A stretch of DNA of 64,000 nt from TPA_inf: Saccharomyces (taxonomy: Eukaryota), in assembly GCA_000146045.2 (NCBI GenBank), contig BK006946.2, forward strand, positions 416,001 through 480,000. The letters run 5' to 3'. Within the stretch, counting starts at the first letter, position 1. Every line of letters starts with the position of its first letter. Both the position numbers and the translations under genes were made by a program. The notes beneath the pieces are model-generated. The model had not been told where the DNA came from. It did no database searches and saw nothing but the letters and a program-made list of their open reading frames with translations. Below are positions 4,588 through 47,625 of the stretch, piece after piece.

Positions 4588-4661
4588 TGATTTCGCCCAG
4601 GATCGAACTGGGGACGTTCTGCGTGTTAAGCAGATGCCATAACCGACTAGACCACGAAACC
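4588..4661 (-). tRNA. tV(AAC): tRNA-Val (anticodon AAC)
   Basis: Reverse complement reads GGTTTCGTGGTCTAGTCGGTTATGGCATCTGCTTAACACGCAGAACGTCCCCAGTTCGATCCTGGGCGAAATCA. This is a cloverleaf with anticodon loop CUUAACAC; an internal A box (TGGTCTAGTCGG) and B box (GTTCGATCC) are present. It matches yeast tRNA-Val(AAC). Confidence 0.9.
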
Positions 4662-19915: not shown

Positions 19916-20627
19916 TAGCGTGTTACGCACCCAAACTTTTTATGAAAGTCTTTGTTTATAATGATGAGGTTTATAAATATATAGTGGAGCAAAGATTAAT
20001 CACTAAATCAAGAAGCAGTACCAGTATTTTTTCTATATCAAGTAGTGATAATGGAAATAGCCCAAATTTGGCTTCCGTCGACACATAGAACGTTTGAGAG
20101 ACATTATCACCATCAAGCATCGAGCCGCCCAAACCTAACCGTATAAGTTTTTTCACGTTTTTGATTTTTCCTTGCACACTTCGATATTACTCTCACGATA
20201 AAAGGGCCGAAGAGAATATTTTTCTTGAACATCCAGAATTTTAATTCGGAGAAATTTCACAAGCCGCCGATTTAAGGGTCCTGTGTTCTTAATAATCAGC
20301 CTCTCTCAAAGCAGGTAAGAGGCAGTCTTTCTTTTAACAATAGGAGACATTCGAACTAAAACATCAGCCCCAAAAATGCGCTTGAAGGTCATTAGGATTT
20401 GGATTTCTTCCTCATTTTTAAAGGCGCCCCTTTTCGTTTTAGTCATGCTGGGCTAGACTAGCACGTAGTGTATGGAATCAAACTGATGCCGTCCCCTGAA
20501 TTATATTTACAATTCAGAAACGTCTTTGAACATTTATAATTAAATTATAAAACAAAAGGAATTTGTAAAAAAGACTTTCAAAAGATGATCCAATAAACTA
20601 GATTAAAAACCCAATATAAGAAGAAGA

Positions 20628-21416
20628 ATGTGTGGCATTTTTGGCTATTGCAATTTTTTAATTGAGAAGACAAGAGGAGAAATCATCGACACTTTAATCG
20701 AAGGGTTACAGGCATTGGAGTACAAGGAATATGACTCCAGTGGAATTTCGATCCAAGGTGATGAGCTGGAGTCTCTCAATATTTATAAGCAAACCGGTAA
20801 AATAAGCAGTTTGAAGGAAGAAATCGACCTTTACAATCTTAATAAGAACCTGCCCTTTATTTCGCATTGTGGCATTGCCCATACTAGGCGGGCAACACAT
20901 GGAGGGCTAAGACGTGCAAATTGTCATCCACATAACTCAGATCCATCTAATGAATTTGTTGTGGTACACAACGGGGTTATTACCAACTTCGCTAATTTGA
21001 AAGCCTTATTGATGGCAAAGGGCTATGTGTTCAAAAGTGACACTGATACCGAATGTATTCCTAAACTGTACAAACACATTTATGATACAAGCATTGAACT
21101 CGGGTACAACCTCGATTTCCATGTATTAACAAATTTAGTACTTAAAGAATTGGAAGGCTCTTATGGTCTGCTATGCACTTCTTCTCATTTTCCCGATGAA
21201 GTGGTTGCCGCAAGAAAGGGTTCCCCGTTAGTTATTGGTGTTAAAGGTAAAACTGACATGGACGTAAACTTTGTCGAGGTGGAATATTTGGATCAAGAAG
21301 AAGACTACTTGAAGCTTAATACTCAAACCAAGAGTTCTGGTAATGTCTTGGCTGCCGCACCTGTAAAATATAACACTTGTTTAAGGAAGTCACCCCCCTT
21401 CGTTCACAATACCTGA
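20628..21416 (+). pseudogene. YMR084W: N-terminal (glutaminase, Ntn-type) portion of a GFA1-paralogous glutamine:fructose-6-phosphate amidotransferase, ended by a frameshift
   Basis: Starts MCGIFGY (catalytic Cys2) and is collinear with Gfa1 residues 1–~260. It stops where the reading frame jumps. Confidence 0.8.
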
Positions 21417-21490
21417 GAAACTCTACAACTTCTACATTCAATCATGGCTCATCCACAGAAACGCCAGCCGAGAACGGCTTGCCGCGACCC

Positions 21491-22789
21491 ATGGAATTCT
21501 ATTTGTCATCCGATTGTGCATCACTAGCGCGGTATGTGAGTAAAGTAGTATATTTGGAGGATAATGATATTGCCCATATCTATGATGGGGAGCTTCATAT
21601 CCATTGTTCTAAAATTGGTTCCGAGGACTTTTCATTTAGAACAGTTCAAAAATTAGAATTGGAGTTGTCCAAAATCAAAAAAGGCCCTTACGATAATTTT
21701 ATGCAAAAGGAAATATACGAGCAGTGTGAAACAACAAAAAATGTCATGAGAGGAAGAGTTGACGCCTTTACAAACAGAGTAGTTTTGGGAGGACTAGAAA
21801 ATTGGTTGACAGAATTGAGAAGAGCAAAACGAATAATAATGATTGCATCCAAGGCCTCCTTCCATTCATGCCTAGCTGCCCGTCCCATCTTTGAGGAGTT
21901 AATGGAAGTTCCAGTAAACGTTGAATTGGCCTTGGATTTTGTTGACCGCAATTGTTGCATTTTCAGGAACGATGTTTGCATATTTGTTTCTCGAAGTGGG
22001 GAGACAACTGATACAATTAATGCTTTGAACTACTGTATCAAAAAAGAGGCAGTCACAATCGGGGTAGTTAATTGCAGCGGTTCCTCTATCTCAAGATTTA
22101 CACATTGCGGTGTTCATACAAACACAGGCCCCGAGAAAGGTATTGCAACAACCAAGTCTTATACTTCTCAATACATCGCTTTAGTCATGATTGCCCTATG
22201 GATGTCGGAAGATTTGGTGTCTAAAATAGAAAGGAGGAAAGAAATAATTCAAGCCTTAACTATAGTCCCAAGCCAAATAAAAGAAGTTTTGGAGCTTGAA
22301 CCATTGATTATTGAATTGTGTGACAAGAAACTAAAACAGCATGATACATTTTTGCTTTTAGGAAGAGGTTACCAATTTGCCTCTGCTTTGGAAGGCGCCT
22401 CGAAGATGAAAGAAATTTCTTACGTGCATTCTGAAAGTATTCTTACCAACGAGCTAGGACACAGAGTCCTAGCTGTGGCATCTGATAATCCGCCAATTAT
22501 CGCCTTTGCGACAAAGGATGCTTTTTCGCCCAAAATCGCGTCTTGCATTGACCAAATAATAGAAAGGAAGGGCAATCCGATTATCATTTGTAACAAGGGG
22601 CATAAGATATGGGAGCAAGACAAACAAAAAGGAAACGTTGTTACACTCGAGGTACCCCAAACCGTAGATTGTCTCCAAGGGATACTTAACGTTATTCCTT
22701 TACAATTAATTTCTTACTGGTTAGCGATCAAGAAAGACATCGGAGTTGATTTGCCAAGGGACTCGGCGATGTCGGCCCCGGATATATAA
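21491..22789 (+). pseudogene. YMR085W: C-terminal (tandem SIS/isomerase domain) portion of the same GFA1 paralogue, in the +1 frame
   Basis: MEFYLSSD... aligns with Gfa1 ...VEFFVSSD... and continues to the Gfa1-like C-terminus ...PRDSAMSAPDI. 432 aa from the first ATG; the frame is open from 21377. Confidence 0.8.
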
Positions 22790-47553: not shown

Positions 47554-47625
47554 TCCGTGATAGTTTAATGGTCAGAATGGGCGCTTGTCGCGTGCCAGAT
47601 CGGGGTTCAATTCCCCGTCGCGGAG
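47554..47625 (+). tRNA. tD(GUC): tRNA-Asp (anticodon GUC)
   Basis: TCCGTGATAGTTTAATGGTCAGAATGGGCGCTTGTCGCGTGCCAGATCGGGGTTCAATTCCCCGTCGCGGAG matches yeast tRNA-Asp exactly. It is followed by a T7 Pol III terminator. Confidence 0.93.

Follow-up and report, generated by a model that had tools for sequence, protein, structure and literature searches.

A GFA1 paralogue of Saccharomyces cerevisiae split in S288C by a one-base contraction of a coding poly-C tract

Introduction

The glutamine:fructose-6-phosphate amidotransferases (EC 2.6.1.16), represented by GlmS and GFAT and, in Saccharomyces cerevisiae, by Gfa1 (YKL104C), are built from an N-terminal nucleophile (Ntn) glutaminase domain starting with Met-Cys, which carries an insert in the eukaryote-type proteins, followed by two SIS domains. 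We report here the analysis of a locus of this family in a 64,000-nucleotide stretch of S. cerevisiae DNA (contig BK006946.2, positions 416,001 to 480,000 of the forward strand), called the window hereafter. The locus is flanked by ADH3 and SEG1 and is annotated as two open reading frames (ORFs), YMR084W and YMR085W, that are in different frames but jointly collinear with Gfa1. It shares with Gfa1 and GlmS the Met-Cys start, the insert and the pair of SIS domains in the same order. It differs from them in that catalytic and C-terminal tail residues are changed, its branch is about four times longer and the polypeptide is interrupted in the window. We consider it very probable that YMR084W and YMR085W are one gene, a fast-evolving GFA1 paralogue, split in the reference strain S288C by the loss of one C from a run of seven, and that the split gene is a genuine, widespread and segregating loss-of-function allele.

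Two kinds of described systems offer a comparison. In segregating loss-of-function alleles of S288C, adjacent ORFs are merged in other strains, and the present locus has this in common with them: one base is missing or added in the reference, which breaks a gene that other strains and sister species have kept whole. It is nevertheless unlike a single private S288C mutation in that the lesion lies in a homopolymer with at least five length alleles in the species. The locus is also reminiscent of the yeast genes expressed by programmed frameshifting (+1 in Ty1, EST3, ABP140 and OAZ1, -1 in the L-A virus), where two overlapping ORFs in different frames correspond to one homologue, and here too the C run would let a tRNA-Pro slip by -1 and pair again. 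Unlike those genes, however, it has no conserved slippery heptamer or stimulatory structure, and the orthologues and many strains lack the frameshift. Moreover, the shift needed would be -1, whereas +1 is typical of the programmed frameshift genes on yeast chromosomes.

Part of this picture is not new. SGD describes YMR084W and YMR085W as GFA1 paralogues that are merged into one in related strains. The source names in UniProt read "Putative glutamine--fructose-6-phosphate aminotransferase" for YJM789 and RM11-1a and "PUTATIVE PSEUDOGENE" for one half in EC1118. According to these database names, it is already known that the gene is split, that a frameshift is the cause and that intact alleles exist; the series of tract lengths from C5 to C9 and the active-site changes described below add detail to the same overall picture.

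Results

YMR084W (20628-21416, + strand) encodes a 262-residue protein that starts with MCGIFGY, represents the glutaminase domain at the N-terminus of the GFA1 paralogue and matches NP_013801.1 exactly. Two Pfam families of class-II glutamine amidotransferases recognize it (PF13522, E = 1e-13; PF13537, E = 3e-10). YMR085W (21491-22789, + strand) encodes the isomerase half with its two SIS domains, corresponding to residues 289-720 of the intact protein; it is an exact match to NP_013802.1 and aligns with PF01380 (SIS) in two stretches (E = 9.5e-50). Its frame is open from 21377, its first ATG at 21491 is the codon of Met289 of the intact protein, and it ends at a TAA (22787-22789). Between the two ATG codons lie 863 nucleotides, and 74 nucleotides separate the YMR085W ATG from the stop codon of YMR084W.

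The two frames are jointly open only from 21374 to 21413, a stretch of about 40 nucleotides bounded by a TAA (21371-21373) and a TGA (21414-21416), and any single insertion or deletion (indel) that joins YMR084W to YMR085W must therefore lie there. The sole run of five or more C or G across the gene, a C6 homopolymer (21393-21398, + strand), falls within this stretch. An earlier note on this DNA, made from the letters alone, had placed the two ORFs and the C6 run correctly and had recognized the collinearity with Gfa1, as the exact matches and the 59% identity reported below confirm. It had described the downstream frame as +1, which has to be corrected: the distance of 863 nucleotides between 20628 and 21491 equals 3 x 287 + 2, and YMR085W is thus in the +2, or -1, frame relative to YMR084W. 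It follows that the S288C allele is one base short of the intact gene and that a rescue by the ribosome would need a -1 shift. The YMR084W product accordingly comprises 257 native residues and five out-of-frame residues (FVHNT) before the premature TGA at 21414-21416. Residues 258-288 of the intact protein (LRSQYLRNSTTSTFNHGSSTETPAENGLPRP; 21398-21490, + strand, -1 frame) belong to neither of the ORFs annotated in S288C.

The addition of one C to the C6 run gives an unbroken ORF of 720 codons. The repaired protein aligns with S. cerevisiae Gfa1 over 99% of its length with 59% identity, a likeness that cannot be due to chance. In a search of about 5.8 billion proteins, it was found to be 99.6% identical to a protein of the same length (P0001) annotated in several S. 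cerevisiae population assemblies, from which it differs by three substitutions (E48K, M129V and N608D); intact forms of 720 or 714 residues are also annotated for RM11-1a and YJM789. At the DNA level, C7 in place of C6 is the only indel in 2.16 kb between the window and the eight S. cerevisiae loci that encode P0001. The orthologues of the three sister species in which we checked the locus are all single ORFs with C7, in S. paradoxus (724 residues, 84% identity), S. mikatae (719 residues, 76%) and S. uvarum (723 residues, 69%), and all three lie between a 375-residue alcohol dehydrogenase upstream and a SEG1 homologue of about 960 residues downstream. In each of them, exactly seven Cs span conserved Ser-Pro-Pro-Leu (SPPL) codons. 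Since C7 goes together with an intact syntenic gene in these three species, C7 is the ancestral state of the tract as well as the intact one, and S288C carries a C7-to-C6 contraction. The proposal of the earlier note that a Gfa1-like gene is split by a one-nucleotide indel in the C run is thus borne out, and the ancestral split that would have refuted it does not agree with the intact C7 genes of these species. A second protein search with residues 178-720 returned no cluster beyond S. cerevisiae, S. paradoxus, S. mikatae and S. uvarum/S. eubayanus, and nothing from S. kudriavzevii or S. arboricola.

We then compared the tract in 39 S. cerevisiae loci, which were fetched by exact protein match and are a selected set rather than a sample from which frequencies could be read. 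Five lengths were observed in the DNA, namely C5 in 4 loci, C6 in 19, C7 in 8, C8 in 4 and C9 in 4. Only C7 keeps the frame. The C8 tract gives the 305-residue product annotated in EC1118 under the source name "putative pseudogene", C9 a product of 263 residues and C5 a further out-of-frame product. The C6 tract occurs in many assemblies and on at least 13 distinct haplotypes, the exact 262-residue YMR084W product being indexed in 345 blocks of the assembly collection and another 262-residue variant in 64. With C5, C8 and C9 alleles segregating as well, the lesion is not strain-specific, as the earlier note had suggested it could be. Haplotypes defined by single-nucleotide polymorphisms (SNPs) place C5 and C6 in one 5' group and C7, C8 and C9 in the other, with some recombinants downstream, so that each class of tract length follows a haplotype group. 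The simplest history that would fit these haplotypes is a stepwise slippage, from C7 to C6 to C5 on one side and from C7 to C8 to C9 on the other. No revertant was seen among the 39 loci, nor any intact allele on the S288C-like 5' haplotype, the C7 loci being only eight and biased.

Further lesions are present in addition to the changes in tract length. On the C5 haplotype (L021-L024, aligned to window position 20700), a G-to-T change turns codon 25 from GAA into TAA (E25*), which leads gene callers to begin the product at Met31; this nonsense codon is a second disabling hit on a haplotype already frameshifted. One protein, P0150, reflects a second frameshift on a C7 background. YJM789 (P0125) and several YJM strains (P0137) share an in-frame deletion of six residues, by which FRTVQKLELELSK becomes FRTELSK; it removes the codons VQKLEL at 21644-21661, in the linker that precedes the first SIS domain, and probably arose by slippage in a short GAATTGGAGTTG repeat. 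A 44-residue gap in the glutaminase domain of P0002, known from a single gene model, may be a true in-frame deletion or else an artefact of annotation.

Gene models at this locus have to be read with care. In some population assemblies the model bridges the C8 frameshift through about 45 out-of-frame residues and then skips back to frame, which creates a false "intact" protein (P0128, 711 residues), and the 90% cluster of the intact protein also holds Seg1p sequences from the adjoining gene. Counts of intact alleles drawn from protein clusters are consequently unreliable. The cluster of S. uvarum and S. eubayanus (P0181, P0182, P0185, P0186 and P0188) contains defective or altered alleles of the orthologue, outside S. 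cerevisiae. One S. uvarum allele stops before Lys603, a version split into 244 and 435 residues on one contig has its frameshift upstream of the C tract, and in S. eubayanus the N-terminus reads MCS in place of MCG, with an upstream Met annotated.

Between species, the non-synonymous rate of substitution relative to the synonymous one (dN/dS) is 0.13-0.16 overall. By region, the glutaminase domain gives 0.08-0.11, the insert containing the tract 0.25-0.40 and the isomerase half 0.12-0.18. The overall values indicate that purifying selection has acted on the intact gene throughout the evolution of the genus. A different pattern is found in the frameshifted alleles, where the derived variants private to these alleles and located 3' of the premature stop are 16 non-synonymous and 6 synonymous, in a small and non-random sample. 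This proportion matches neutrality, and an omega of 0.16 is rejected (binomial p = 3.5e-4). Together, the neutral private variants and the second-hit lesions support a real loss of function in the split alleles. With loss-of-function alleles at other positions in S. uvarum and S. eubayanus as well, the GFA1 paralogue appears to have been repeatedly dispensable across the genus.

We also examined the catalytic residues in an alignment that set the repaired protein against E. coli GlmS, the Gfa1 of S. cerevisiae and a further eight Gfa1 proteins drawn from seven other yeast species, using the E. coli numbering. The homology with the solved GFAT/GlmS structures is unambiguous (E = 3e-179). Cys1, which in the MCGIFGY start aligns with Cys1 of E. 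coli, is kept in the repaired paralogue, as are Arg73, Asn98, Gly99, Asp123, Ser303, Ser347, Ser349, Thr352, Lys485, Glu488 and His504. Several positions that do not vary between E. coli GlmS and any of the aligned yeast Gfa1 sequences are changed in the S. cerevisiae paralogue: Lys603 is replaced by Met, the channel residue Trp74 by Arg, Gln348 by Arg, Thr302 by Ala, Ser401 by Thr, Val399 by Ile and Arg26 by Lys, and the C-terminal tail PRNLAKSVTVE has become PRDSAMSAPDI. A review of the enzyme names Glu488, His504 and Lys603 as the isomerase domain's three catalytic residues and calls them highly conserved (PMC9272926). Met603 is common to the paralogues of S. paradoxus and S. mikatae, which both lack His504 as well, and Lys603 is kept only in one S. 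uvarum allele. The intramolecular ammonia channel needs both halves on one polypeptide; this arrangement is found in the C7 alleles and is broken after residue 257 in the window.

The branch of the paralogue is about four times as long as the GFA1 branch (0.55 against 0.14 substitutions per site, measured to Eremothecium gossypii). A neighbour-joining tree was uninformative for dating the duplication, being dominated by the long branch of the paralogue; according to SGD and YGOB, the paralogue is a putative whole-genome-duplication ohnologue of GFA1.

Altogether, we conclude that the intact protein is a relative kept by selection but altered in its catalysis, for which a canonical glucosamine-6-phosphate (GlcN-6-P) synthase activity is doubtful. 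The idea expressed in the earlier note that an intact copy would be a second entry enzyme of the hexosamine pathway is open to doubt in view of the Lys603-to-Met, Trp74-to-Arg and Gln348-to-Arg replacements and of the diverged tail. Because residues unchanged in canonical GlcN-6-P synthases have been lost, the function of the intact protein is probably not a simple redundancy with Gfa1. In the curation of a genome-scale model, YMR084W was taken out of the GlcN-6-P synthase reaction on the ground of the gfa1 auxotrophy (PMC11704421).

A motif scan upstream of YMR084W detected two CCCCT motifs of the stress response element (STRE) type on the - strand, at 20427-20431 and 20493-20497, that is at -201 and -135 from the ATG. 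Such motifs are located at -201 and -135 in S. paradoxus and at -197 and -136 in S. mikatae, and a single one at -188 in S. uvarum (upstream regions L010, L011 and L012). They would be likely to form a stress-responsive promoter element for the whole locus. High-pressure CO2 stress has been reported to co-induce YMR084W and YMR085W 4-11 fold (PMC9605315). The positions of the motifs and this induction suggest that the paralogue is a conserved stress-induced gene, and the motifs together with the co-induction of the two ORFs fit a single stress-responsive transcription unit. The main text of a "core gene set" preprint makes no mention of YMR084W.

The window also contains two ordinary nuclear tRNA genes, tRNA-Val(AAC) at 4588-4661 (- strand) and tRNA-Asp(GTC) at 47554-47625 (+ strand), which have no relation to the split gene.

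Discussion

The comparisons presented above establish where the lesion lies, its nature and polarity, and the fact that many independent assemblies carry it. As to how the split allele arose and what it produces, we propose that replication slippage took one C from the ancestral C7 of the coding tract and left C6, at a site in the glutaminase domain's poorly conserved insert. A ribosome that starts at the normal ATG would then leave the native frame after residue 257 and stop five codons further on, and the isomerase half would be left in the -1 frame, where it came to be annotated apart as YMR085W. The mRNA would be one transcription unit with a premature stop, and the split allele would yield no functional full-length protein. 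The locus shows what is expected of a polymorphic pseudogene, that is a disabling lesion opposed to intact alleles in the same species and intact orthologues, together with relaxed constraint and secondary lesions. It also has in common with contingency, or phase-variable, loci several tract lengths, from C5 to C9 in the DNA, that toggle the reading frame.

Some observations weigh against this interpretation. A peptide-mass fingerprint has assigned a spot of a two-dimensional gel to YMR085W (PMC9462545), and deletion of ymr085w has been reported to better growth in yeast models of proteotoxicity (PMC8958550). The spot and the phenotype might each reflect expression of the downstream half in some strains, but neither demonstrates its translation from the C6 allele. 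Slippage of the ribosome or of the transcription machinery on the C run may also provide a low-level rescue in the C6 allele. In addition, the 39 loci are no population sample, and their intact C7 set is biased towards one protein sequence.

One would first wonder whether the C6 run is simply an error of sequencing or assembly, the gene being in reality intact in S288C. Homopolymers are indeed classic error sites and some of the population assemblies derive from long reads. However, the ORFs of the window are identical to the curated RefSeq entries NP_013801.1 and NP_013802.1, the same 262-residue product recurs in those 345 blocks, which come from independent assemblies, among them short-read Logan assemblies as well as NCBI chromosomes, and C6 is tied to a specific SNP haplotype, which is not expected of a random error. 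We regard such an error as vanishingly improbable, and the sequencing-type homopolymer difference that the earlier note had kept as an option can be discarded. The split might also be bridged by recoding. In this hypothesis, the C run would cause a programmed -1 ribosomal frameshift or a slippage during transcription, which would restore the frame and produce a full-length protein identical to that of C7 alleles. A tRNA-Pro slipping from the CCC at 21396-21398 to the CCC at 21395-21397 would re-pair perfectly and would give the native junction KSPPLRSQY, and the gel spot and the deletion phenotype leave room for some expression. On the other hand, the 0-frame codons at the site read TCA CCC CCC TTC, which is not a canonical X XXY YYZ heptamer, and no stimulatory structure is apparent, since the minimum free energy of the segment 21399-21500 (-14.7 kcal/mol) hardly departs from the mean of shuffled sequences (-14.55 kcal/mol, z = -0.05). 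The two-frame arrangement is not conserved, the sister species and many strains having a single ORF with C7, and coexisting alleles such as C8 and C5 would require opposite shifts. Finally, the private variants of the downstream half are neutral (16 non-synonymous against 6 synonymous) and the C5 haplotype has gained a nonsense codon, neither of which would be expected if this half were usefully translated. Programmed recoding is thus extremely unlikely in our opinion, in agreement with what the earlier note had anticipated and with the absence of a structure signal and the neutral substitution pattern.

Another hypothesis lies in a gene fission, by which YMR084W would act in S288C as a glutaminase on its own and YMR085W as an independent sugar-phosphate isomerase-like protein. 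Each ORF contains complete Pfam domains, both are annotated as genes and co-induced by stress, and the fingerprint identification and the deletion phenotype of YMR085W point in the same direction. Yet the ATG of YMR085W is 863 nucleotides beyond that of YMR084W and follows the premature stop after a 74-nucleotide gap, and the isomerase half lacks Lys603. Besides, the downstream-half variants private to split alleles are neutral, and several frame-breaking alleles and second lesions segregate. We therefore hold fission to be very unlikely, and we retain a single gene disabled in S288C by the C7-to-C6 contraction.

The role of the intact protein is a distinct question. It might be a pseudoenzyme that is induced by stress and altered in its catalysis, for instance a partner or regulator of Gfa1 oligomers, and the conserved C7 tract would then be an on/off switch that mutation flips again and again in Saccharomyces populations. 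The five tract lengths in S. cerevisiae, the C7 tract of four species with a shifted codon register, the conserved upstream STRE motifs and a dN/dS of about 0.15 despite the loss of Lys603 are all compatible with this proposal. The switch is weakened by tract lengths that follow haplotype groups, by the lack of any revertant and by the further lesions gained by disabled alleles, and also by the fact that CCC is the commonest Pro codon of the gene (9 of 26). The conservation of C7 across species was for this last reason discounted as a sign of selection on the tract. Taken as a whole, the proposal is a long shot and we put it forward as no more than a speculation.

For annotation, our results mean that YMR084W and YMR085W are the halves of one gene that is disabled in S288C-derived strains, and neither two genes nor an isoenzyme of Gfa1. 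When metabolic models and interpretations of deletion screens name YMR085W "the first step of the hexosamine pathway", they do so on the basis of homology, and the comparison of the active sites gives no support to this designation. The allelic series at a single poly-C tract shows a coding homopolymer yielding recurrent natural knock-outs. Crosses between S288C-type and RM11-1a-like strains segregate broken and intact copies of the gene, and they constitute a ready tool to approach the role of the intact protein.

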